Shown: positions 2,651 through 29,927 of the stretch, piece by piece
Layout of the letters: each line of letters opens with the position of its first letter
How positions within the stretch are numbered: position 1 is the first letter of the stretch
Assembly: GCA_050953835.1 (NCBI GenBank)
Contig: JBMNNH010000009.1
Span: forward strand, 12,944-76,943
DNA: 64,000 nucleotides
Origin: Acetivibrionales bacterium
Lineage (GTDB): Bacteria; Bacillota; Clostridia; Acetivibrionales; JBMNNH01
Reading direction: 5' to 3'
Notes under the pieces: model-generated
What the model was told of the DNA's origin: nothing
What the model saw: the letters and a program-made list of their open reading frames with translations, nothing else
The model's database searches: none
Program-made: the position numbers and the translations under genes

Positions 2651-2885
2651 TATGACAGGGGACGGTTCTGTGTCCTATTACTCACATCTCTCTACAATCC
2701 CCTTGCTTACCCCTGTCAAACTACTGATTTGCTCTACTGAGATACCTTCTTCCCGCAATTTCTTAATACAACTGTTCCTCAATTGATTTCGAGATGCTTG
2801 AAACTCCGATAAGTTTTTATATTTAGAGACTTTCCTTAGCATACCAACCTATCTCAGTCGAGACACGGAACCGTCCCCTGTCTTG
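2651..2885 (-). mobile_element. MITE-like element: inverted REP-like 21-mers enclosing a 54-aa C-terminal remnant of a putative REP-associated tyrosine transposase
   Basis: GACAGGGGACGGTTCTGTGTC (2654-2674) and GACACGGAACCGTCCCCTGTC (2862-2882); internal ORF 2842-2678 MLRKVSKYKNLSEFQ...RNSCIKKLREEGISVEQISSLTGVSKGIVERCE. Family assignment is from recall of clostridial RAYT C-termini. Confidence 0.7.
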
Positions 2886-2912
2886 TTTCCCTTTTCCCTG
2901 CTATCCATATCC

Positions 2913-4102
2913 TCACTCTCTTGCTTTAAAATTGTAGATGGGCTTTATAATATCAACTATTTCAACAGTATCTTGAATATTATTAATGATTTCATCCATA
3001 GGCTTGTAGGCCAGAGCACATTCATCCAGTGTTGACCTGTTGACAGTGGTGGTATATATTCCTTCCATTGTTTTTTTAAACTCTTCAAGACTGATGGTTT
3101 TCTTAGCCTTTCTCCTGCTCATTATCCTTCCTGCCCCATGAGGCGCAGAATAATTCCAGTCTTTATTGCCTTTGCCAATGCAAATAAGACTTCCGTCCCT
3201 CATGTTTATCGGGATTAATACCCTTTCGCCTTTTCGGGCGGAAATTGCACCTTTTCTTAAAATCATGCTGTCCAAATCAATATAGTTGTGTATGGTTGTA
3301 AACTGTTCTTCTATTTCAAACCCCATTCTGTTTATAATCTCGTCAACAATGGCTTTGCGGTTATATACGGCATACTGCTGGACTATTTTCATATCATGCA
3401 GGTAATTGTTATAGCTTTTCCCCTGTACATAGGCTAATTGTTTGCTGATTTTGACAGGACTGATTTTCTTAATTTCATCCTGGATTTCTTTTTCGCGTCC
3501 TTCAGCCTTCAGTTTTTTACTATTTCAGCCTTCAGTCTGTTTTATCCGTAAGCTCCTTATAAGCCAGTTCCTGATAGTATTCTGCAACCTGCTTTCCCAA
3601 ATGCCTGCTCCCGGAATGGACAACCAGGTATAATGTCCCATTACTGTCTTTGTTGACTTCTATAAAGTGGTTTCCGCCTCCCAAAGTGCCAATACTCAAT
3701 CTTGCTCTTTCAAGATTAACATGTTTTTTACAGGCTAAACTATTAAAGTCATATGCTCTCAGTATATTTATGCTGTTTTTTCCTAATATTAAACCCTGAA
3801 GGAATATAATCATAGATAACATTATCCAGTTTTTCAAAGTCAATCTCTTTCTGCTTTAGTTTTATGGTTTCCATGCCGCAGCCTATATCCACACCAACAA
3901 GATTAGGCACAATCTTATCAGATATTGTCATAGTTGTGCCAATGGTACAACCCGCACCGGCATGGGCGTCAGGCATAATCCTGATAATACTGTCCTTCAC
4001 GAACTCCTGATTGCATAGTTCCATGATTTGGGCTATTGCTTCACTTTCTACATTATCAGTGAATACTTTGGCAGTATTATATTTTCCTTCAATCTTAATC
4101 AT
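2913..4102 (-). pseudogene. rtcB: RtcB-family RNA ligase, split by frameshifts (possibly assembly indels)
   Basis: MPDAHAG, VGVDIGCG, GTLGGGNHFIE, HSGSR, IHNY, RKGA and SAPHGAGR motifs spread over ORFs 3749-4102, 3532-3843 and 2913-3392. Confidence 0.9.
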
Positions 4103-4355
4103 ACTTTCACCTAATTCACGTCCATAATTTTTCCAAGCTTAAACAAAATATTGAAACAGACACTCCTAGCAAGAGGAGCAAGTATGCTTATCATGTTCAT
4201 AATTCAAATGATAAACCATACCTCATTTTAAGCAATTAAGAGTAATTTCCACTTCCTCTTACTTTCTTTTGCCTAATGGTATGAAAGTGGTATATATCCA
4301 CTTTCACTGTAAGGTTAAAAAACTAAACAAAGTTAACCAAATATGAAGTTTATTA

Positions 4356-5678
4356 TCACGGTCCCGTACCTACACCGTCAATCCTCCAGCCGCTTTTTTC
4401 AGATTCTTTCTTCAATATAACAAATCTTGGTTGGATTCCATCATCTGAGGTTATTGGTTTTACGAAGTCAAAGTCAACTTCAACCATATACTCCAACACC
4501 TCTGGCTCATTCTGAATTCCTTTAAATTCTTTTGTCTCCAGCAACTTTGCACTCTTAATATTATAGTCTATTTTATTCTCATCCCTATTAAAAAGGTACT
4601 GGTTGTTCATATTGGATGATAACTGCTGCGATAGGCTTTTTCTTGTCATACATGCCCATACCATTTTTATGTCATGCCTATCTAATGCCTTGAAATACTC
4701 TCTGATTATATCCTTTGGTTCCATTTTGGACAGCTTGATTTCCAATTCATCCTCATAATCAATATAATGTGCAATCCATCCATCCCATTCCTTGCCCGTA
4801 ATATCTTTTAAACTCTTTCTATCAAGAGAGCATGCGAAAGAATTGTGCCTTCCGGCATCGTTATATGCCCCAATAATCTCATCATTATGCTTAAGAATAA
4901 TGCCTCTCGCGTCTCTTCTTGGCTTCATAAACTCGGGAAGCGTTTCCCTAAGCCTATAAATTTCTGCTGTAACAACCTTTCCGAGGTAACCAGTATAATC
5001 AAAACCTATTTGCTTGGAAAGTTCATTGTTATAAGCCCAATATATTTTTACCGGGTATTCTCCTGCCCTATGTTTAAGGCTTTTAGGTAATTTTTCTTTT
5101 AAGGTACTTATTCTATAGTCAACAGTCCAGTTATATTTGCCAAATAGTCGCAACACTCGCTGCTCAATATTAGTATCAGGATTTGTATACTCATTTAAAT
5201 CGGCAATGTATCTAAAGAAACTATAATCTGGCTCAACCTTTCTCCCACCTTTATCTATGTACCCTATTTCATAAAGAGTATCATATGTAAAACTAATATC
5301 CTTTTTGCTCCCATCTTTTCCATTAATAATTAACTGATTGTTTTTACGGGCCATTCCACTCATCTTGCTTATTTTGGATTCATCTGTCAATGGTTTGCTT
5401 TCCTCTATCATGGACATAATGTCATTTATCATCTTAGAGTCTTTAATTAATATAGGTTTTACCTTATTCCAGTAAGTCCCATTCGCATCGAGGATAAGTT
5501 CAATTGTTGTAATATCCTTAGTCCTGTCAGTAGTTTCATGCTCCTCATCCCCAACCTTATCTTTTTGTGTCTCCTGCTTTAAAGAGATTTGACCTTTTTG
5601 CACCGTATTACAGCCTGCTGAAAAAACTATTATTGTTATCAATAAAAGCATCAAACATCTTCTGTACAACTTATACAC
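4356..5678 (-). CDS. Lipoprotein, probably with DUF4830/DUF4829-like domains
   Basis: Lipobox FSAGC; C-terminal PKDIIREYFKAL...FVILKKESEKSGWRIDGVGTG pattern. Confidence 0.7.
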   Translation of the reverse strand: MYKLYRRCLMLLLITIIVFSAGCNTVQKGQISLKQETQKDKVGDEEHETTDRTKDITTIELILDANGTYWNKVKPILIKDSKMINDIMSMIEESKPLTDESKISKMSGMARKNNQLIINGKDGSKKDISFTYDTLYEIGYIDKGGRKVEPDYSFFRYIADLNEYTNPDTNIEQRVLRLFGKYNWTVDYRISTLKEKLPKSLKHRAGEYPVKIYWAYNNELSKQIGFDYTGYLGKVVTAEIYRLRETLPEFMKPRRDARGIILKHNDEIIGAYNDAGRHNSFACSLDRKSLKDITGKEWDGWIAHYIDYEDELEIKLSKMEPKDIIREYFKALDRHDIKMVWACMTRKSLSQQLSSNMNNQYLFNRDENKIDYNIKSAKLLETKEFKGIQNEPEVLEYMVEVDFDFVKPITSDDGIQPRFVILKKESEKSGWRIDGVGTGP

Positions 5679-6013
5679 CTCCCTATTTCAATGAATCCAT
5701 AGAATTTCTTCATGCTTCTTCCGGAATTCTTCTTCAATAATCAGACCATCTTCCTTCAGCCTCTCGCTTCTCGTTTTTCTTACCTACACCCTTTAATCAC
5801 GGAGATTGTTTTTTTGATTATGATTTTCCTTGTCCCATGTTTTCACCATCACCTGTCACCTATTGCCCATCACCTGAATAATGCGCGGCTTGCTGCGCAT
5901 ATTCTACTAATACATCATAAGTCATAATCTATAATGCAGCCTAATTTTTATATTATTATATCAATTTTCATCATTAATGGAAAATAAGAACTCGCCAAAG
6001 GAAGTAATTCAAT

Positions 6014-6186
6014 TCTGAGTTTCAACGATTAGAAATCAAAGTAAGAAACAGCTGCATTAAAAAACTACGGAAGAAAGGACTTTCAGTAAGATAGATTAAT
6101 AGGTTAACAGGGGTAAGCTAGAGAATTGTTGAGAGATGTGAAAAACAGGACATAGAACCGTGCCCCGTCCTATGTCCCCAGTCTTA
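6014..6186 (+). mobile_element. Degenerate RAYT-like C-terminal remnant plus REP-like end, opposite orientation to the other copies
   Basis: Translates SEFQRLEIKVRNSCIKKLRKKGLSVR*INRLTGVS; followed by GACATAGAACCGTGCCCCGTCCTA and a second partial copy TGTCCCCAGTCTTA. Confidence 0.75.
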
Positions 6187-6191
6187 CCGTT

Positions 6192-6773
6192 TTATTCTTC
6201 CTTTTCCCATTGGTCCATCTGCCTCATAACCTCATCGTATGTTTTTTTACAGATATCAGGAAGTTCTCCTCCCAGGGCTTCTTCCGCTGCTTTGAAGCCT
6301 TTTTCAATTGCATCTTTCAATTCAGCAATTTTACTCTTATCGCCGCCCGAAAGCGACTTTGCGAAATCGACAATTCTTGAGCTTACCGCTGCAACACCCC
6401 ATTCTCCATCGTCAGAAATCATCTTTTCCGCTTCAGCCCTGGTTTTACTGTCTATCAACAGGATTTCCTTTCCGTCATGAACACTCCCGGCCTTTTTCCC
6501 CTGATTGACAATCAGGTTCTCCACAAGCTCTCTCAAGGACGCAGTCGCCTTATCGACTTCCTCCCAGAGCCTGTCAATATCTTCAACACTCATGGCTGAC
6601 GGTCTGGAAACAGGATTGCTGTAAGTGACGCTCTTGTTTTCGGTTTTACCGATCTCCACAATTACGCCGTTTTCTTCACCGGTATTTATTCTCTGATCTT
6701 CCTTGACATTCCTCTTATCATTGGTTTTATAGGCTTGTGCCGTGTTTGAAACAAGCTGAACAGAATTAACCAT
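6192..6773 (-). CDS. Conserved hypothetical protein, probably in the flagellar (sigma28) regulon
   Basis: ATG 6773 with GGAGG; clostridial motif WGVAAVSSRIVDFAKSLSGGD...GFKAAE..LGGELPDI; sigma28 promoter upstream. Confidence 0.75.
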   Translation of the reverse strand: MVNSVQLVSNTAQAYKTNDKRNVKEDQRINTGEENGVIVEIGKTENKSVTYSNPVSRPSAMSVEDIDRLWEEVDKATASLRELVENLIVNQGKKAGSVHDGKEILLIDSKTRAEAEKMISDDGEWGVAAVSSRIVDFAKSLSGGDKSKIAELKDAIEKGFKAAEEALGGELPDICKKTYDEVMRQMDQWEKEE

Positions 6774-6822
6774 TATAATCCCTCCATCCATGGACAATAT
6801 GTTGAAATCCTTATATTAATAG

Positions 6823-6851
6823 TTATATCGGCATAAAATGAAATAACTTAA
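6823..6851 (-). promoter_or_regulatory. sigma28 (FliA/SigD) promoter
   Basis: TTAA-N15-GCCGATATAA on the minus strand. Confidence 0.75.
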
Positions 6852-6884
6852 CAAAAGCATATGCTATACGTATGAATTTTAATG

Positions 6885-6999
6885 TTGAAACTCCCATAAG
6901 TTTTTACATTTTGAGACTTCCTCAGTACACCAACCCGTCTCAGTCAAGACACAGAACTGTCTCCTTTAGGGCTTGACTTTTTATAGTTAGTCTGTCTTA
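6885..6999 (-). mobile_element. Truncated copy of the 2651-2885 element
   Basis: 6885-6965 aligns by eye with about 2798-2879 (degenerate GACACAGAACTGTCTCCT); TAAGACAG at 6999-6992 directly follows the corrected csaA stop. Confidence 0.75.
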
Positions 7000-7328
7000 C
7001 TATCCCAGCCTGTCTCCTTTTTTACCTTCTGTTCAGGCTCAATCAATACTACTCCCTGTTGGGCATATACACCTAATACCAGTACTTCTGACATAAAACC
7101 GGCAATTCGTTTTGGGGGAAAGTTTACAACGCCTAAAACTTGCCTGCCAATAAGCTCTTCCGGTTTGTAACATTCAGTAATTTGAGCGCTCGATTTCTTT
7201 ATGCCGATTTCTTCACCAAAATCTACTAATAGTTTATATGCGGGCTTTCTTGCCTTTTGAAAAACTTCCGCCTGAATAATTTCTCCAACCCGAATATCCA
7301 GTTTCATAAAATCATCAAAAGTAGCCAT
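7000..7328 (-). CDS. csaA: CsaA/Trbp111-family tRNA-binding protein or chaperone (1-nt indel near the 3' end)
   Basis: [40 protein letters not shown]; restoring one G gives the canonical KGDRLG* ending at 7000. Confidence 0.9.
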
Positions 7329-8028
7329 TATCAGACCCTCCTGTGGAATACTTAAGTTTTCTCGACTCTACCGTGCAGAGAAAGTCGTATATGGGTTTCA
7401 GCTTCCTGAAACCCTTTTTTAGTATATCAGGAAGCTCCTTTGAAAACGCAAGCTTGAAATCATTTTGGACAGATTCGAAGTATATGTTTTTTCTGTCCAG
7501 CCATAATCTTAAGCTCTCCGGCTGACCGGGAAACTTGCTTCTTTTGTACATTTCGCCCCCGATAACAAACTCATTTTGGGATTCATAGCACTTAAGCGCG
7601 CTTAAAAATGCAGGATGTCTGTTTATTATCATTTCCCGCATAATAGCCATTGATTCTGTTGGTGCGCCGTAATAGCCAACACCGTAGCTTGAGCCTTTCT
7701 GGTTTATTTCAAACCAGAAGCAAGGAGAAGTTGACATCTTGGATTTATCCCGCAGGAATACAAGCCAGGCATTATCCCTGTAAAGGCTCTTATCTTTTGA
7801 AAAACGGGTATCCCTGCGGACTCTGGAAATCAATTTCGATGGGATAGTTATAATCATATGGTCTATTTCCGTCATAGTAGGCACCAATTCCATAATAAGC
7901 TCTACAAATGGGTGGTATACGTATTTTTTATATTGGCTTTTATGGCTTTCATACCAATCTTTGCTATTATTTATTTTGTTTTCAAAAAGGAATTTCAGTG
8001 CTTCTTGGGTAAATCCACTAAAACTCAT
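7315..8028 (-). CDS. DUF2461-family protein
   Basis: [22 protein letters not shown] and [17 protein letters not shown] motifs. Confidence 0.85.
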
Positions 8029-8163
8029 ATCAGTAACCTCCGTATTATTACATAAAAACAAGGTGCAATATCTTTTTTAAATATTTTGACAGAAATCTAC
8101 AGTTCTATCAAGTAAGGCTAGAGATTATGATACAGTTTTTCGGGAATATGATCAACTTAATTG

Positions 8164-8432
8164 TATGACAGTATGACAGGGGACGGTTCGTATGACAGGG
8201 GACTATGACAGGGGACGGTTCTGTGTCCTATTCATCACATTATATGACAGGGGACGGTTCTGCGTCCTATTCATCACATTACTCTACAATACCCTTGTAT
8301 GCCCTTGTCAAACTGCTGATTTGCTCTACTGAGATACCTTCTTTCCGCAATTTCTTAATACAACTGTTCCTCATTTTGATTTTCAAATATTGAAACTCCG
8401 ATAAGTTTTTATATTTTGAGACTTTCCTTAGC
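8164..8432 (+). repeat. Five nested, 5'-anchored copies of the REP-like end; the last runs into a RAYT-like remnant encoded on the minus strand
   Basis: Copies start with TATGACAG at 8164, 8172, 8191, 8204 and 8243, with lengths of about 8, 19, 13, 39 and 190 nt; ORF 8279-8467 ends LRKVSKYKNLSEFQ...GISVEQISSLT. Confidence 0.9.
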
Positions 8433-8688
8433 ACAGCAACTGAAACCACAGTTTTAAAAAATACCATATGCTTTATGCTCTCAACAAAATACTCTATTGG
8501 TGAAGCGAATAGTTTATTCCTAAGGCTTGGGCAAATAATAGAGTATTAAATATGTAGCCAGAAACACAAAAACAAAAGTAATTAAATATGTAAAACCTTT
8601 TTCATTGGTACTTTTCCCTGTAGAATATAAACACTTTTAATACACATATTTTTAAAAATCGAAACAATTAGCCTAAAGATTTTATGAA

Positions 8689-9225
8689 TTAGTTTATTGT
8701 AAACTCCGATGCTAAATAGTAAGTGTCATAATCACCTGTACCTCTAAAATCCAGTATATCTTTTATAATGCGGTATTTTCCTGATTCTAAATTCCCATAG
8801 AGCCAGTTCCAATCGACTTTCCATTCTCTACAATCACCAGGCGATAAATCATAACCAATGCTATTAAATCCGTAGTCGCCATCTATAGTAACAGGAACTC
8901 TATACCAAATTCCATTGATTTTCTTTTCTAATCCAAAGTATTCGCCATAGATGCATTGACTGCTAGAATTATTCTCGATTACTACAGTCAATCCAGTTGA
9001 GGTCGCTGTTTCTTTCTTTACAGTCATAGTAACGCCATCAAAGTTGTTGGTAGTTTCGTATGTTGATGGATTCCAGTCAGTTACATCAGTAGACTGGCTT
9101 AAAGTCTTTTCTATTTCGGTGCTTTCTATATCTACAACCGATATCCTGTTATCATTGACCTTACACCCTGCAAGTAGAGCTAAAAAAGTGGCCATACAAA
9201 TGAATAAGCATATATACTTTCGCAT
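8689..9225 (-). CDS. Lipoprotein with bacterial Ig-like domain
   Basis: Lipobox LLAGC; GVTMTVK, YGEYFGLEKK and WNWLYGNLESGKYRIIK motifs. Confidence 0.8.
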   Translation of the reverse strand: MRKYICLFICMATFLALLAGCKVNDNRISVVDIESTEIEKTLSQSTDVTDWNPSTYETTNNFDGVTMTVKKETATSTGLTVVIENNSSSQCIYGEYFGLEKKINGIWYRVPVTIDGDYGFNSIGYDLSPGDCREWKVDWNWLYGNLESGKYRIIKDILDFRGTGDYDTYYLASEFTIN

Positions 9226-9249
9226 AAAAAGTCTCCTTTTTAATACTAT

Positions 9250-10600
9250 TGTTCTGTTAACTTAATAATAAAATGAGACCTGAAACGCCTCTGGTATAAT
9301 GGAATCGTCAAAAAACACATTATCTCCCAGAAAGGAGCGTTCAAGTCTCATGACTATTATACCATCTAACGTAGTATGTCCAAGGTGTTTTTCAAAAGTT
9401 CTTAACCGTTTTGGTAAGGACAAGGAGGGTTACCAAAAATATCAGTGTCAACATTGTAAGCGTCAGTTCGCTCCAGATAACCCTACTTCCAATTCACAAT
9501 CGAGAAAAAGAAAATATCCTGATTGCCCGATTTGCGGTAAAGCAACTTTTCTTCACCATGACTATACTTATTACTCAAACTTCCGGTGTGGTGATAAAAA
9601 AATGTAACCATTCCTTTAGAGTTCCGAAGCTTATTAACGTGGAACCACCTTCTTCTGAATTGAACCCACAAAGCTTTTCTTTTAAAGGAATGCGTCATTC
9701 TCTCCACATTGTTCTTTGTGCCCTTAATTACTACTTTTGCGGTAATTCAACCACCCGCAAGGTTTCCCAGATCTTATACATGGTTCATCAGATTAAAGTC
9801 TCACATGTTACCATCTCGAAATGGATTAAGCGCTTTGCCCCGGTATTTAAAAAGATCGCCACAGATCGGCTTTTGGGGATTAAGCTCTGCGATTCGGATG
9901 AATGGCATTTCGATGAAACCTATATCAAAATTTCTGGGAAAGATTATTATCTCTGGCTTGCCATTGATTCCGAAACCAGATTAGTTCTTGATTTTCATCT
10001 TTCTCCTAACCGTGATTCATCCGCTGCTCATACCCTTTTATCAAGCTGTAAAAGAAATTTCGGACAACCTCAATCCGCTGTAATTTCTGATCGATATTAT
10101 GCCTATCAACAGCCTGCTTCTCTGTTCTTCCCAGAGGCCAAACATATTTGTGTGGAAGACTTTGATGATTTAATCAACAACAATGTTATAGAGGCTTTTA
10201 ACGGGCAATTCAAAGCGTGGTACAAACCTAAAAGAGGCTTTAATTCATTCGAATCTGCCAACCGGCTCATTGCTACATACATTTTCTTTTACAACTTCGT
10301 TCGTCCTCATTTGAGTCTCAATGGTTTAACACCGGCTCAAGTTGCCGGAGTTAAATACTCAAAACGCGAACGGCTCTTCTGGTTATTGGTAGCTTGAGTA
10401 ATATTCAGATTTCAAGGTTCATTCCGTCCTGCGCTGTGCCAGGACTATTTGTGCTACCTTAATTAGAACTTTTAAGGGTTGCACATCACTTTTTTTCATG
10501 TTACTTTGTTCTTAGTCGTTTCCATTAGTAGGCTTTTTTCTTTTTAAGCTCTACCAAAGGTCTTTCAGGTCTCATTTCTTCATACTTAGTTAACAGAACC
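9250..10600 (+). mobile_element. IS6-family insertion sequence
   Basis: Terminal IRs (T/G)GTTCTGTTAACT...AAATGAGACCTGAAA; 8-bp target duplication AATACTAT at 9242-9249 and 10601-10608. Confidence 0.92.
9350..10397 (+). CDS. IS6-family DDE transposase with N-terminal Zn fingers (one extra A in the run at 9596-9602)
   Basis: CPRC, CQHC and CPIC motifs; WHFDETYIKI, ISDRY and NNVIEAFN DDE motifs. Confidence 0.9.
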
Positions 10601-10616
10601 AATACTATTATTATTA

Positions 10617-10642
10617 GACGTTTAATATCAATATAAGTTACA
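10617..10642 (-). promoter_or_regulatory. ECF sigma (SigX/M/W/V-type) promoter of the Ig-like lipoprotein gene, now separated from it by IS6
   Basis: TGTAAC-N16-CGTC on the minus strand. Confidence 0.65.
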
Positions 10643-10693
10643 AAATTATATAAAATCTTGTATCAAGAAATAGGGTAAGTCGAAAGGAAAAAT

Positions 10694-10742
10694 AAAATCC
10701 CGTAGCAAATGAAGATTTCTCCTGCATTTGCTACGGGATTTT
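10694..10742 (-). terminator. Rho-independent terminator downstream of glmS
   Basis: 18-bp inverted repeat AAAATCCCGTAGCAAATG...CATTTGCTACGGGATTTT. Confidence 0.85.
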
Positions 10743-10811
10743 GAAGCGAACTTTATTTTTATAGAGCGAAGTCTATTTTTATGGAGCGGAGTTTGTTTGA
10801 GTTATACGCAA

Positions 10812-10861
10812 GACATAGAACCGTCCCCTGTCTTACCCGTCCCCTGTCTTACACTGTCTTA
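10812..10861 (-). repeat. Three nested REP-like copies starting at the glmS stop codon
   Basis: Minus strand: TAAGACAGTG / TAAGACAGGGGACGGG / TAAGACAGGGGACGGTTCTATGTC; the first TAA is the glmS stop. Confidence 0.9.
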
Positions 10862-12685
10862 TTCCACCGTCACACTCTTGGCCAGGTTCCTTGGTTTATC
10901 TACATCACAGCCTTTGAGGACAGCCATGTAATACGCAAACAACTGCAAAGGAGTAATGGCTGCTATGGGGGCAACTACAGGGTCTACATCCGGTATAGTT
11001 ATTATTGTATCCGCTACTTCTTCAACCCTCTTTTTATTGTATTGCTGTGTTATAGCAAGGACTACAGCTCCACGAGCCTTTACTTCCTTGACATTGCTCA
11101 CCATTTTATCCAGCAGGTGATCCTGTGTCATAGGGCATACAACAAGGGTTCCTTCTTCAATAAGGGCTATCGTACCATGTTTCAGTTCCCCTCCCGCATA
11201 GGCCTCAGAATGGATATAGGATATTTCCTTGAGTTTTAATGAACCTTCCATGGACAAAGCGAAGTCAAGTCCTCTTCCAATAAAAAATATACTGTTTGCA
11301 TTGTAATGCTGTGAAGCAAATTTCTGTATATCTTCCCCATCCGAAAGTACACTTTCTATTGCAGCCGGAATATCTTTCAATCCCTGGATAACCCTATTGT
11401 ATGTTTCATAGTCAATATTGCCCTTTTTATAAGCCAGATCCATTGCAATAAGATACAGGGCAGAAAGCTGGGTGTTGTATGCCTTTGTAGACGCAACAGC
11501 AATTTCAGGCCCTGCCCATGTATAAAGAACATCATCAGACTCCCTTGCAATTGAGCTTCCTACCACATTAACAATTGACAGTATCCTTGCTCCTTTGCGC
11601 TTCGCTTCTCTTAATGCAAACAGAGTGTCAATGGTTTCGCCTGACTGGCTAATTATTATTACCAGAGTTCTTTGATTTACTATGGGGTCACGGTACCTGA
11701 ATTCAGAAGCTATATCTACTTCAGACGGGATTCTGGCAAACTGTTCTATCAGGTATTTTCCTATAACACCTGCATGGGATGCAGTACCGCATGCAACTAT
11801 AAAAATCTTATCAATGTTCTCCAGGTCTTGTGCAGTGATGTTTATATTATCCAATTTGATTTTCCCATCCAGCAGTCTAGGATTAATAGTATCTCTGACA
11901 ACATTTGGCTCTTCACATATCTCCTTCATCATAAAATGTTTATATCCTGATTTTTCAGCAGCCGAAACATCCCAGTCAACATGAAAAATCTCTTTCTGTA
12001 TTTTCAAACCATAGTTGTTGAAAATTTTAACTTCATTTCTGCTTAAGGATACCACTTCCTTGTCCTCAAGGATATAAATATTCCTCGTATACTCAAGAAT
12101 GGCTGGAATGTCCGATGCTATATAGTTTTCTCCTTCACCCAGCCCAACAATAAGAGGGCTATCCTTCCTTGCAGCAACAATCTCATCCTTGCAGTCCTTG
12201 CACAATACCCCCAAGGCATAAGAGCCTTCAAGCTCATTGATTGAGTCAATAACAGCCTGTACAAGGTCACCGTTGTAGTGATATTCCACAAGGTGGGCGA
12301 TTACTTCAGTATCTGTATCCGATACAAACTTATATCCCTGGGATTGCAAAAACCCCTTTAGCTTTAAATAATTCTCAATTATTCCATTGTGTACAACAGC
12401 AATTTTCCCTGACCAGCTTATATGAGGATGTGAATTTACATCATTAGGTTCACCATGGGTTGCCCATCTTGTATGCCCTATGCCTGCACTTCCTTCCAAA
12501 ACCTCTTTACCGGCTTTTTCCTCAAGACAGCTAAGCCTCCCCTTGCATTTTACAACCTTTAAACTATCATCATTGTAAATTGCAATGCCCGCGGAGTCAT
12601 AGCCCCTGTATTCCAGTTTTTTTAAACCGTTTATAAGAATAGGCGCAGCTTTCTTTACGCCAATATACCCAACTATTCCACACAT
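10859..12685 (-). CDS. glmS: Glutamine--fructose-6-phosphate aminotransferase
   Basis: MCGIVG start with AGGAGG RBS, LEYRGYDSAG, GHTRWATHG and PRNLAKSVTVE end. Confidence 0.99.
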   Translation of the reverse strand: MCGIVGYIGVKKAAPILINGLKKLEYRGYDSAGIAIYNDDSLKVVKCKGRLSCLEEKAGKEVLEGSAGIGHTRWATHGEPNDVNSHPHISWSGKIAVVHNGIIENYLKLKGFLQSQGYKFVSDTDTEVIAHLVEYHYNGDLVQAVIDSINELEGSYALGVLCKDCKDEIVAARKDSPLIVGLGEGENYIASDIPAILEYTRNIYILEDKEVVSLSRNEVKIFNNYGLKIQKEIFHVDWDVSAAEKSGYKHFMMKEICEEPNVVRDTINPRLLDGKIKLDNINITAQDLENIDKIFIVACGTASHAGVIGKYLIEQFARIPSEVDIASEFRYRDPIVNQRTLVIIISQSGETIDTLFALREAKRKGARILSIVNVVGSSIARESDDVLYTWAGPEIAVASTKAYNTQLSALYLIAMDLAYKKGNIDYETYNRVIQGLKDIPAAIESVLSDGEDIQKFASQHYNANSIFFIGRGLDFALSMEGSLKLKEISYIHSEAYAGGELKHGTIALIEEGTLVVCPMTQDHLLDKMVSNVKEVKARGAVVLAITQQYNKKRVEEVADTIITIPDVDPVVAPIAAITPLQLFAYYMAVLKGCDVDKPRNLAKSVTVE

Positions 12686-26664: not shown

Positions 26665-27363
26665 TCAGATAAAGTTTCTAGCATTCTTTACATCGATTAT
26701 TGCAGTTTCAATGTGTTCCCTCATAATTTTAGCGGCTGCTTCAGCATCTCTATTTATTACTGCATTGAGGATCTTTCTGTGATAATGCATTCCAGCCTGG
26801 AAACCTCTAAGTTTGACAATTTCCTCCATTGAGTTTTTCAGCATATCGTGCATTATTGCAGTTACCTTTACTACAACGCTGTTATGTGTGGCTAATGCAA
26901 GAGCTGTATGAAAATTCAAGTCCTCGTAAGCAAATTTTTTATAGTCTCCCTTACTTTTATCCATGTTTGAAAGGATTTCCTTCATTCTGCCTATATCCTC
27001 TTCATTAGCTCTGAGTGCGGCAAATCTGGCACTTTCAATTTCAATTACGGAACGAAATTCCAGCATTTCAATCAGGCTTGTCGTTTCAATCATAAGTACA
27101 GGCAAAAGAGTATTAAAATAGTCTTTCGGAAGTATTTCCGAAACAAAAGTTCCCTCCCCCCTTCGTATAGTTAGTACTCCCATACCTACCATACGGTGAA
27201 TGGCCTGTCTGATTGAAACCCTACTCACACCAAACATTCTTGCTAAATCATTTTCTCCAGGAATCTTGGTACCAGGAGCCCACTCGCCAGAAATTATATT
27301 ATCTTTGATTTGTTCCAGAACCTCATCGCTAACTTTTTTTTGTTTTATTGGCTTAATATTCAT
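26665..27363 (-). CDS. FadR/GntR-family transcriptional regulator
   Basis: PGTKIPGENDLARMFGVSRVSIRQA winged HTH; FCD domain with DLNFHTAL. Confidence 0.95.
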   Translation of the reverse strand: MNIKPIKQKKVSDEVLEQIKDNIISGEWAPGTKIPGENDLARMFGVSRVSIRQAIHRMVGMGVLTIRRGEGTFVSEILPKDYFNTLLPVLMIETTSLIEMLEFRSVIEIESARFAALRANEEDIGRMKEILSNMDKSKGDYKKFAYEDLNFHTALALATHNSVVVKVTAIMHDMLKNSMEEIVKLRGFQAGMHYHRKILNAVINRDAEAAAKIMREHIETAIIDVKNARNFI

Positions 27364-27632
27364 TTTGCATCCCTTTTATATGTATTATGTATTACCTCTA
27401 TATTTTTTTTTATTATATATGATTTCATTTATTATTGCAAGAAATATTTGATGGTGATGTAGTATGGTCATTATGGTCAATACATACCCTTTCACTGCAT
27501 AATACTAATGATGAATCCTCTCCCTGTGATAATAATTTTTGTGCATTCTATACATTATTTTTATCATTGTTTTGTCTATTTTAACTATTGACTTTTCAGG
27601 TCTATCAAAATAACATAAACTTAATCAATCAG

Positions 27633-27678
27633 TTGTAATACATCTCATGCTGGACAGTTACTTGTAATACATCTCATG
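27633..27678. promoter_or_regulatory. Tandem FadR-type operator pair upstream of garR
   Basis: TTGTAATACATCTCATG at 27633-27649 and 27662-27678, just downstream of TTGACT-N17-TAACAT. Confidence 0.7.
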
Positions 27679-27720
27679 TATTATATTATACTATGTAGAA
27701 TATGGAGGGGGGTTTGTATA

Positions 27721-28608
27721 ATGAAACGTATTGGATTCATAGGGCTTGGGATTATGGGTAAACCAATGGCATTAAATCTAATTCGTGCTGGGTATTCGTT
27801 AACAGTCTATGATATAAACCCAAAGCCGCTTAAAGAACTCGAACAGGCTGGGGCTGAAATTGCTGCCAACGGAAAAGAAGTAGCGGAAAAGAATACAATT
27901 ATTATCACCATGCTGCCTAATTCACCGCAAGTAAAGGAGGCTGTTTTTGGAGAAAACGGGATTATTGAAGGTATTCAGAAGGATTCCATACTTATTGACA
28001 TGAGTTCGATTTCCCCCGCTGCGTCCAAAGAAATTTCGGAAGGTATCAGCAATAAGTGTGCCTTTATGCTGGATGCTCCTGTCAGTGGTGGAGAACCCAA
28101 GGCAATTGACGGAAGCCTGTCCATCATGGTTGGCGGCAAAAAAGAAATATTTGACAAAGTATATGATATTCTAATGGTCATGGGCAGTTCTGCTGTGCTG
28201 TGCGGGGATATTGGCGCAGGGAATACCACTAAGCTTGCAAATCAAATAATTGTCGCCGCTAACATTGCGGCACTTTCAGAGGCGCTGGTGCTTGGCAAAA
28301 AGGCCGGAGTCAACCCCGAAGTAATATTCAACGCTATACGGGGAGGTCTTGCCGGCAGTGCAGTTATGGATGCGAAGGCACCAATGATGATTAAAGGCAA
28401 TTTTTCACCCGGATTCCGTATAGCTCTACATATAAAAGACTTGAACAACGTCCTTGAGACCGGTCACGAATATGGTTCGCCACTGCCACTAACTTCTGCG
28501 GTAATGGAGATGATGCAGTGGCTGAAAGCCAATAATTTCGAAGCAGAGGATCACAGTGCACTTGCTAAATATTACGAGAATTTGGCTGGAACCTTTATAC
28601 ACGATTAA
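27721..28608 (+). CDS. garR: 2-hydroxy-3-oxopropionate (tartronate semialdehyde) reductase
   Basis: IGFIGLGIMGKPM, DAPVSGGEPKA, KLANQIIVA and PGFRIALHIKDL motifs. Confidence 0.88.
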   Translation: MKRIGFIGLGIMGKPMALNLIRAGYSLTVYDINPKPLKELEQAGAEIAANGKEVAEKNTIIITMLPNSPQVKEAVFGENGIIEGIQKDSILIDMSSISPAASKEISEGISNKCAFMLDAPVSGGEPKAIDGSLSIMVGGKKEIFDKVYDILMVMGSSAVLCGDIGAGNTTKLANQIIVAANIAALSEALVLGKKAGVNPEVIFNAIRGGLAGSAVMDAKAPMMIKGNFSPGFRIALHIKDLNNVLETGHEYGSPLPLTSAVMEMMQWLKANNFEAEDHSALAKYYENLAGTFIHD

Positions 28609-28720: not shown

Positions 28721-29927
28721 ATGAAAAAAGACAATCTCTGTGATTCTTGCACTGTTGTTAGTAGCTATGCTGGTTGGCTGTGGCTCCACTGGAACAACGA
28801 AGAGTGCAGGCGCAACTACCGCAACTGGCTCCAGCGACAAATCTTCGAGCAGTGAATCTGCTGACAAACCTTCGAGCAGTGAATCCAATGACAAACCTTC
28901 GAGCAGTGAATCCAATGACAAACCTTCGGGAGACGGAAAAGTTTGGCCGAATGGCACACCTACCGTGACAGTTGGCTTCGGTGCAGGTGGTGGAACCGAC
29001 ACCGCAGTTCGTCCAGTGATTGCAGAAATGGAAAAATATCTGGGTGAAACAATCAATGTATTAAATCAGGATGGTGCAGCTTCTGCTGTCGCCGCAACCA
29101 ATGTTCTTAACAAACCCCATGACGGATATAGCATGTTTGCAACCGGTTCCGGTGCTTTTGCAGGCTTTGGCGTGAACGACACAAGCGACAGTGATTGGAC
29201 TGACTGGGCATCTTTCCATGCTTTTACAGGTCCTGCCGCCATTGTTGTTAATCCTAACGGCAACATCAAGTCTTTGGACGACTTAAAGAACTATTTGTCT
29301 CAGGGTACTCAAAATTTTGCCATAGGTTCATTCGGAAATGGACCTCATGTCCAGATTGAAGCAATTCTTCAACTTCTGGGTATTGATTCCGTCAACTACA
29401 TGACGTTGGGATCTTGCCGGGATGCGGGTGTTTCCGTAGTCTCCGGAGATGCCGAAGTTGCAATCGGTTCTTTCTCCGCACTGATTGATTTCGTAAATGC
29501 CGAGCAGCTCAATGCGCTGTGCGTTACAACTGCTGACGGATGGACATTAAGCAGTGGTGGAAAAGTTGGTGAGACTATTCCATCAATCACAACCTTGATT
29601 GAAGGAGCCGATGCAATTCCCCAGTTGTGTGAAACCTGGCCGATTATGATTCCACGTGATGCACCTCAGAATATTATTGACAAAGTGGAAGAGGCATTTA
29701 AGTATGCGTTAACAACCGATGCTATCAAGGAATTTGCAAAAGAAAAAGGTTATATTGTTGTCGGCTATACCGGAGAAGAAGCGGATAGATTCCAGGCTAT
29801 GCAAACCTGTGCATACAGTTGGGTGCAGTACGATTCGGGACTAGTCAGCATTTCTCCTGAAAGCTTGAATCTTCCCCGCCTTGAAGACTTTGACTGGGAA
29901 GTTGAAAAGGCCAAACTGAACAAATAA
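28721..29927 (+). CDS. tctC: Tripartite tricarboxylate transporter substrate-binding lipoprotein (one extra A after the ATG)
   Basis: AGGAGG plus ATG 28721 gives MKKTISVILALLLVAMLVGC after removing one A; GFGAGGGTD motif; precedes tctB and tctA. Confidence 0.85.
28836..28927 (+). repeat. 27-bp coding tandem repeat (about 3.4 copies) forming a Ser-rich linker
   Basis: GACAAAYCTTCGAGCAGTGAATC... encoding DKSSSSESA/DKPSSSESN/DKPSSSESN/DKPS. Confidence 0.9.

Follow-up and report, generated by a model that had tools for sequence, protein, structure and literature searches.

What kind of process restarts a DNA repeat at the same base again and again and stops it each time at a different one? This question is raised by an array at positions 8164-8282 of a 64,000-nucleotide (nt) stretch of DNA from an Acetivibrionales bacterium (GenBank assembly GCA_050953835.1, contig JBMNNH010000009.1), which was analysed at its full length and is hereafter called the window. 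The motif that stutters in this array, with the core GGGGACGGTTC, evidently is the terminal inverted repeat of a miniature mobile element of about 235 bp. Its parent element, present as an intact copy in a relative, has by all signs of its sequence the make-up of a TIRtron, that is, a gene for a Y1 HUH transposase of the RAYT/TIRYT type set between two inverted hairpin repeats. We propose that the arrays may record how such an enzyme cuts and re-joins DNA.

On the plus strand, the array at 8164-8282 consists of partial units of 8, 19, 13 and 39 nt followed by a full copy of the repeat, with TATGACAG opening every unit; this parse agrees base for base with that of a preliminary description of the locus. 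The final G of the 19-nt unit has no counterpart at that place in the full copy, and the 39-nt unit differs from the first 39 nt of the full copy (from 8243) by a single mismatch (97% identity in the self-comparison). The same pattern recurs on the minus strand at 10809-10861 and, in degenerate form, at 6146-6186, where a unit at 6186-6173 precedes a diverged full repeat at 6172-6146; both sites had been recognized before, with boundaries at 10812-10861 and 6149-6186. Each array copies the lead letters, those directly 5' of GACAG, of its own adjacent full copy: TAT for the array starting at 8164, TAA for that at 10861, TAGCGT on another contig of the same genome (C19) and GAGGA at a public locus (L059). 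The 15-nt core GACAGGGGACGGTTC has eight matches in the window when up to 3 mismatches are allowed, where 0.67 would be expected, and TAWGACAG has 13 where 4.0 would be; 0 of 100 shuffles reached either count. It had been argued that the array is not a variable-number tandem repeat of constant unit, and the unequal lengths of 8, 19, 13 and 39 nt bear this out, as replication slippage would give units of one length. As expected from this inequality, Tandem Repeats Finder yields only pieces, with periods of 8, 13 and 39 at the 8164 array and of 16 at the mirror array.

Read support was judged from contigs, not from individual reads. A Logan contig of 1189 nt from run X2 is identical to 7147-8335, and contigs from runs X2 and X4 are identical to 10757-11200, in each case with 0 differences. 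The X2 match supports the accuracy of the sequence; X2 may be the source sample of the assembly itself and hence gives no independent proof. An X3 contig over 10732-11200 carries 12 other letters and 17 gap letters, and in X4 a joint of 10836 to 10812 appears at a depth of 2.4; these could represent a copy-number variant, or another locus or organism. Contig joints such as 2674 to 10811 and 8266 to 10814 are inverted doublets from elsewhere, not deletions.

The identity of the repeat emerges from the element that it bounds. The inverted repeats of the complete miniature copy (copy A, Table 1) are 89% complementary over the 27-nt arms reported, and the minus strand of its interior encodes a 53-amino-acid remnant, which shares 65% identity with residues 197-248 in the transposase of a relative from the same order (genome G009). 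Three further copies, B to D, are incomplete, and the likeness of copy D to copy A ends at 8440. The interiors of copies A, B and D match residues 197-251 of the 251-residue G009 protein (2684-2842, 6014-6145 and 8276-8434, respectively), and the whole genome of the window (G000; 27 contigs, 93.6% complete) holds four such C-terminal remnants, the three in the window and one on C19. By these signs, copies A to D are four decayed, gene-less and non-autonomous TIRtron derivatives. In G009, an intact copy of about 900 bp (locus L004, 1501-2401) carries the 251-codon open reading frame (ORF), on the minus strand at 1530-2285, between the same inverted repeats; at L004/L039, inverted repeats of 22 nt lie 878 nt apart.

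The G009 protein matches Pfam Y1_Tnp with an E-value of 2e-14 and the NCBIfam model REP_Tyr_transpos (NF047646) with 86.2 bits, above the cut-off of 80, and scores 17.4 bits against the IS200 model NF033573, below the cut-off of 55. It also resembles the E. coli TnpAREP structure (PDB 4er8, E 5e-4), and its C-terminus gives sub-threshold matches to helix-turn-helix (HTH) families (HTH_38, 0.0017; HTH_7, 0.0028; HTH_23, 0.011). The translation shows the motifs NHLH, FQ and YIHQNP, which, in a comparison of the TnpAY1 subclasses by motifs, fit subclass 2.1 partly and subclass 2.6 in two of three. Across five relatives, inverted repeats with the core GGGGACGG flank at least 9 of 20 Y1_Tnp genes, eight of them with the full GGGGACGGTTC. 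The exact 15-mer is found in at least 131 stretches (one genome per species), mostly from Clostridia, including Lachnospiraceae, Oscillospiraceae and Acutalibacteraceae among others. The link to HUH enzymes made in the preliminary description was therefore right in kind, given that a gene with these Y1_Tnp and REP_Tyr_transpos matches lies between the same repeats.

The stutter is a property of the family and not of this locus alone. The intact G009 gene copy shows it on either side, and it is also present at L032, L034 and L026, on contigs C19 and C23 of the window's genome, and in 15 of the 131 listed public loci, which come from 14 assemblies including one isolate genome (L076). The richest case is L059, a doublet flanked by five partial units at one side and by four at the opposite side. 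Within the public sample listed, 22 of 149 full repeats carry a partial copy starting GACAGGG within 60 nt on their outer side (3.2 per kb, against 0.4 elsewhere) and 10 of 149 on their inner side; under a stricter filter six inner cases are left, four of which are the arm of an inverted partner and two direct copies. The stutter is one-sided, and both ends of an element stutter in mirror fashion, which does not support the earlier idea of an element with one fixed and one variable end.

We defined a clear unit as one with at least 7 letters matching from GACAG and at most 9 letters away from the next unit, which gave 35 units; the 39-nt unit of the window was left out for its one mismatch. 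At least 3 lead letters 5' of GACAG are common to the unit and the next one in 29 of the 35, compared with 8% for control pairs from different loci. The junction is fully explained as head to tail from the same start in 21 units with no extra letter and in four with one extra. The units end at 12 different positions (7, 8, 9, 10, 11, 12, 14, 15, 16, 17, 21 and 34 letters), and the 35 ends share no dinucleotide, unlike the CT of E. coli: G/G, G/T, C/T and C/G all occur at the break. An extra G follows GGTTC at one place in the window and at four in L059, which fits the end of a polymerase product.

Sequence analysis further revealed that the repeat is a REP-like (repetitive extragenic palindromic) hairpin whose 7-bp stem encloses a conserved loop of 13 nt, GGGGACGGTTCNN. 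When the three letters 5' of GACA are paired with the three letters 3' of TGTC, the pairs -1/+1, -2/+2 and -3/+3 are Watson-Crick in 76, 80 and 57% of 148 distinct full sites, against 43, 47 and 27% after shuffling of the partners, and 0 of 1000 shuffles reach the observed values, the kinship of the sites being uncorrected. The compensatory stem types include TAA/TTA, GGA/TCC, GGT/ACC, AAA/TTT, GAT/ATC, TGG/CCA and GGC/GCC; it is this covariation of the outer pairs that delimits the repeat unit as stem plus loop. The lead letters 5' of the stem are TAT, TAA, GGA, GGT, AAA and others, and the arrays restart at the hairpin foot or 1-3 nt outside it. Inverted doublets with short spacers are common among the sites, as in REPINs. 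At the hairpin foot the 5' tetranucleotide GT[AG]G was not found, and GTAG is outside the 25 commonest lead/tail types of the 148 sites.

We propose, with slightly better than even confidence, that the transposase nicks the repeat boundary and that the 5' end held by the enzyme is then sealed, round after round, to a 3'-OH whose strand has grown by x copied nt. As read from the repeats themselves, the nick, its strand, the extension and the re-joining would proceed as follows. The transposase, either supplied in trans or active formerly, would cut one of the strands at the outer hairpin foot and keep a 5'-phosphotyrosine bond to the first base of the repeat. A host polymerase would then extend the free 3'-OH of the flank into the repeat by a few to a few dozen nt (about 5-40); alternatively, the donor may be a nearby growing 3' end that has already copied equally far. 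The extended 3'-OH would attack the phosphotyrosine and re-seal the strand, so that the product would read flank, repeat letters 1 to x and whole repeat. Each round would add one partial copy on the outer side, its start marking the nick and its end the point where synthesis stood, and either end of an element would build up its array on its own strand, regardless of the other. HUH chemistry would be expected to leave just such a scar, with one constant 5' letter linked to a variety of 3' letters, always on the outer side, from a local template and independently at the two ends; the earlier suggestion of a fixed enzyme-bound 5' end joined to a variable 3'-OH fits that chemistry as set out in the accessible text of two papers on HUH/RAYT enzymes (PMC3479197, PMC3333891). 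A mirror symmetry of left and right arrays, as from folded-doublet events, was considered and rejected, since the two sides of L059 run 15, 15, 15, 12, 12 and 15, 9, 12, 11. For the window, we reasonably infer that the nick would lie immediately 5' of TA(T/A)GAC, where the units restart, and not at one universal distance from the core.

Among known systems, rolling-circle elements (IS91/ISCR and Helitrons) and the Rep proteins of rolling-circle plasmids at termination nick a strand, prime strand-displacing synthesis with its 3'-OH and seal the product to the 5' end held by the enzyme; bypass of an end leaves one fixed and one variable end. They use a two-tyrosine Rep, often with a helicase, and copy whole elements, whereas here the gene is of the Y1_Tnp family and both ends stutter. 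The IS91/Helitron analogy drawn in the preliminary description accordingly does not hold: the enzyme is a single-tyrosine Y1 RAYT/TIRYT, and no Rep or helicase families are among the Pfam matches of 12 selected neighbouring ORFs, which comprise Hsp20, RtcB pieces, DUF4829/4830, tRNA_bind, DUF2461, a Big_14 lipoprotein, an IS240-type DDE transposase, GlmS and GlmM. The IS200/IS605 elements (IS608, ISDra2), whose mode is termed peel-and-paste, share the Y1 HUH transposase, hairpin recognition and action on single strands; they differ in lacking inverted repeats at their ends and in having just one active strand, and the G009 protein fails the IS200 model.

The element class itself is already known. 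RAYT-like genes between long inverted repeats with the motif GGGGWSAS were described as TIRtrons and their enzymes as TIRYT in the accessible text of Di Nocera et al. (2013, PMC3733652), and the part of Quentin et al. (2018, PMC6006769) available to us equates TIRYT with TnpAY1 subclass 2.1, with a median of 238 residues, an HTH-like tail and no REP-like structure. The elements reported here resemble these in the RAYT-like Y1 HUH gene of about 240-250 codons, in its putative HTH-like tail, in long inverted repeats with a GGGG-rich motif (GGGGACGG agrees with GGGGWSAS at 7 of 8 positions) and in repeat copies dispersed as singles, dimers and clusters. They differ in that the window copies have lost the catalytic domain and in that a hairpin with covarying stem pairs is present, where the published account, as far as accessible, gives subclass 2.1 no REP-like structure. 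In the accessible parts of the work on E. coli REPtrons, TnpAREP is likewise a single-tyrosine HUH nuclease that binds a hairpin, cleaves single-stranded DNA and stays attached to the 5' end, while extension and re-joining of the 3'-OH can add repeat material. For the bacterial interspersed mosaic elements (BIMEs), Ton-Hoang et al. (2012, PMC3333891) propose in Fig. 7B that the 3'-OH of the first cut is extended by the host polymerase and that the 3'-OH of the new strand attacks the Tyr-5'P, adding a unit; Messing et al. (2012, PMC3479197) note in the text available that the enzyme is monomeric and that any single-stranded DNA with a 3'-OH could resolve the 5'-phosphotyrosine after cleavage. 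As these accounts present it, E. coli adds whole units with a second specific cut at CT and a 5' GTAG guide; here the units are partial and of many lengths, with no GTAG and no common end dinucleotide. By analogy, our arrays look like an abortive form of the BIME amplification model of Ton-Hoang et al., halted after 5-40 nt. We found no description of nested partial copies in the open literature on TIRYT, RAYT and REP, subscription-only papers and supplements lying outside that search; relative to this literature, the hairpin nature of the repeat in this clade and the polar stutter are new.

Several observations weigh against the nick and re-join scheme. No match to the Y1_Tnp catalytic domain at the cut-off was found anywhere in the 27 contigs of the 93.6% complete genome, so nothing shows that the process is active in this genome. 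Cleavage sites have been mapped for none of the enzymes of this clade. The claim of a fixed restart and a variable stop stands within arrays, as the 29 of 35 units with a common lead and the 12 end positions attest, and it does not extend to all of them: four of nine multi-unit arrays (L065, L066, L087 and L095) are degenerate, with junction lengths that vary like the unit lengths, six of the 35 clear units have fewer than 3 common lead letters, and 10 have two or more unexplained junction letters. The restart point is constant to within one letter inside an array but lies 1 to 8 nt 5' of GACAG between families, a spread not obviously predicted by the geometry of one enzyme. Single repeats fold only weakly (-2.5 to -5 kcal/mol, z -1.6 to -2.5), and the covariation test carries the uncorrected kinship already mentioned. 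Finally, the unit ends show modest peaks at 7, 12 and 15 letters, which could represent preferred second cuts instead of free-running synthesis.

These peaks lead to the first rival, in which the same enzyme would make two cuts, one at the fixed outer site and one at relaxed secondary sites in the loop, and sister-strand exchange would duplicate or delete letters 1 to x. It corresponds to the excision/recombination model and to the second cut of model 7B of Ton-Hoang et al., in the text accessible (PMC3333891), and gains from the report there and in Messing et al. (PMC3479197), as far as available, that E. coli TnpAREP has no requirement beyond a CT dinucleotide and cleaves at multiple positions to the left and right of the hairpin. 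A T follows GGTTC in the template as well, making that end a C/T step. Set against the modest end peaks, the 12 end positions have no common dinucleotide, and a repeat minus letters 1 to x, which would be the reciprocal product, is rarely met, the 43 multi-match loci listed including only L146 and perhaps L105. The untemplated junction letters, such as the G after GGTTC, suit a polymerase end better than a cut. We consider two cuts unlikely.

Comparably unlikely is a process without any enzyme of this kind, in which a polymerase stalls in the hairpin and the nascent end re-primes at the hairpin foot by template switching or slippage. The repeat is able to form a hairpin, 33 of the 35 ends lie inside the first 17 letters, namely the 5' arm and loop, and the genome has no catalytic gene. 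Re-priming at a fixed base requires homology, however, and the first units share only 0-2 letters (once 4) with the flank beyond the lead. Slippage would moreover give constant units, the effect is one-sided despite a near-symmetric hairpin, and the stutter was found at repeats of this transposase family, with unrelated hairpins outside the comparison.

Two further explanations are very improbable. A new element might insert into a resident end repeat and recombination then delete the duplicated interior, leaving the first x letters outside; some mobile elements do target their own ends, and a fixed outer start with a variable inner stop is predicted here too. The far-side remainder that must follow (letters x+1 onward) is absent beside every array inspected, an insertion and a precise deletion would be needed for every unit, up to five per side at L059, and, as the units carry their neighbour's lead letters, every insertion would have to come from the local copy. 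It is just as hard to credit that selection has kept the partial copies as binding sites (iterons), be it for the HTH tail of the transposase or for a host protein. The units retain the conserved GACAGGGGAC part and the C-terminus is weakly HTH-like, with all matches below cut-off; but the number, length and order of units differ per locus and between both ends of one element, many units are too short (5-8 letters) for that motif, and 127 of the 149 repeats have no unit at all.

An assembly or sequencing artefact at the hairpin, to which single-base frameshifts in rtcB, thiM and the IS transposase lend some colour through the residual homopolymer errors they suggest, is scarcely credible, because a k-mer-based X2 contig reproduces the first array exactly and contigs of X2 and X4 the mirror array, similar arrays recur in public assemblies of separate studies (14 others, one of them an isolate genome), and homopolymer errors do not produce templated units of 8-39 nt. 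A Tn7-like remnant at attTn7 downstream of glmS was rejected for its lack of tns genes and because these repeats are also found at many loci that have no relation to glmS. A DDE transposase inside 8164-10861 was likewise rejected as the cause of the stutter: that interval holds only the Big_14 lipoprotein gene and an IS240-type insertion sequence (IS), which has its own inverted repeats and a second copy on C23 and is unrelated to the repeat. Integron attC and Xer sites were considered as well; neither a recombinase gene nor a fitting core turned up, no dedicated search having been made.

The features of the element and its arrays are collected in Table 1.

Table 1. Copies of the miniature element and units of the stutter arrays in the window
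Feature	Position	Strand	Remarks
Copy A, complete 235-bp miniature element	2651..2885	+	inverted repeats 2651-2674, 2862-2885
Copy B, left part of element, inverted, diverged (73% to copy A)	6014..6172	-	diverged repeat 6146-6172
Degenerate partial unit outside copy B, 14 nt	6173..6186	-	TAAGACTGGGGACA on minus strand
Copy C, right-hand fragment	6885..6965	+	decayed repeat without GGGGACGG core
Partial unit 1, outermost, 8 nt	8164..8171	+	TATGACAG
Partial unit 2, 19 nt	8172..8190	+	TATGACAGGGGACGGTTCG; 18 templated letters to GGTTC plus one G
Partial unit 3, 13 nt	8191..8203	+	TATGACAGGGGAC; end after GGGGAC
Unit 4, 39 nt	8204..8242	+	entire repeat hairpin plus 12 nt of interior
Copy D, full left repeat 8243-8269 and interior	8243..8440	+	transposase C-terminus remnant, minus strand, ~8276-8434
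Full repeat of mirror array, inverted	10809..10835	-	TAAGACAGGGGACGGTTCTATGTCTTG on minus strand
Partial unit, mirror array, 16 nt	10836..10851	-	TAAGACAGGGGACGGG on minus strand; Tandem Repeats Finder period 16
Outermost partial unit, mirror array	10852..10861	-	TAAGACAGTG on minus strand

The repeats abut the 3' ends of genes. The stop codon TAA of glmS (10859-10861) forms the first three letters of the outermost partial unit of the mirror array, the stop of the ORF at 6192-6797 lies 5 nt from the array at 6186, and TAAGACAG at 6992-6999 falls, in frame, within the last codons of the tRNA_bind ORF (6987-7328). Copy A together with the following 15 letters (2886-2900) is bracketed by a 53-bp direct repeat, 98% identical (2599-2651 and 2901-2953), which takes in the last 13 codons and the stop of the C-terminal rtcB ORF. 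This direct repeat looks like a very long target duplication; its derivation as a product of the nick and re-join scheme was attempted and did not fit.

Elsewhere in the genome, a PTPS-family gene (Pfam 5e-10) downstream of thiC is enclosed by two repeat sets with outer-side stutter, on C19 at 27150-28349 (L174) and on C23 at 70680-73300 (L175). This cassette occurs twice in the genome, the C23 copy being interrupted by an IS240-type IS, and its presence in two copies suggests that a segment enclosed by two repeats is able to duplicate or to move. The IS240-type (IS6-like) IS of the window spans about 9248-10603, with inverted repeats at 9271-9296 and 10552-10577, and its second copy lies on C23 at about 71510-72840. 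A zinc-ribbon ORF (9299-9607) and a DDE ORF (9411-10397) occupy different frames, and the two copies differ by single-base indels; its contig depth of up to about 5800 in run X2 indicates that the IS is abundant in those communities. The rtcB gene is split into three ORFs (window 2913-4102) and thiM into two (L174, 1896-2724), and related contigs from four runs show single-base insertions or deletions at 3518, 3542 and 3751; the splits mark either true pseudogenes or homopolymer errors that remain in the assembly. A 20-nt tandem repeat (10745-10788, 2.2 copies, 87%) adjoins a 21-bp terminator-like hairpin (10694-10742) in the stretch that separates the IS from the right-hand array. The top-scoring array in the window is a 27-nt tandem repeat at 28836-28928 (3.4 copies, 93% matches).

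How REP-type repeats multiply has been an open question since the discovery of the RAYTs, and the published models, as far as their accessible text goes, are based on in-vitro cleavage by one E. coli enzyme. A one-sided ladder that restarts at one base is the kind of scar that an early abort of the reaction would leave under these models. Should the link between the arrays and the enzyme hold, they would provide in-vivo evidence for nick-primed copying and promiscuous re-joining, place the cut for a large clade and identify the subclass 2.1 'TIRs' as REP-like hairpins. On the practical side, such arrays may mislead repeat finders and assemblers. Going further, we suggest tentatively, and with somewhat less than even confidence, that the arrays are base-resolution footprints of the catalytic cycle of an uncharacterised HUH clade, those TIRYTs of Clostridia that have the GGGGACGGTTC loop: each array would pinpoint the nick at the outer hairpin foot, the phosphotyrosine would be resolved in vivo by any 3'-OH at hand, and longer runs would amplify the repeats and possibly their flanks. 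If this is true, the cut sites and strand polarity of hundreds of RAYT/TIRYT families would be readable from genome sequence alone.

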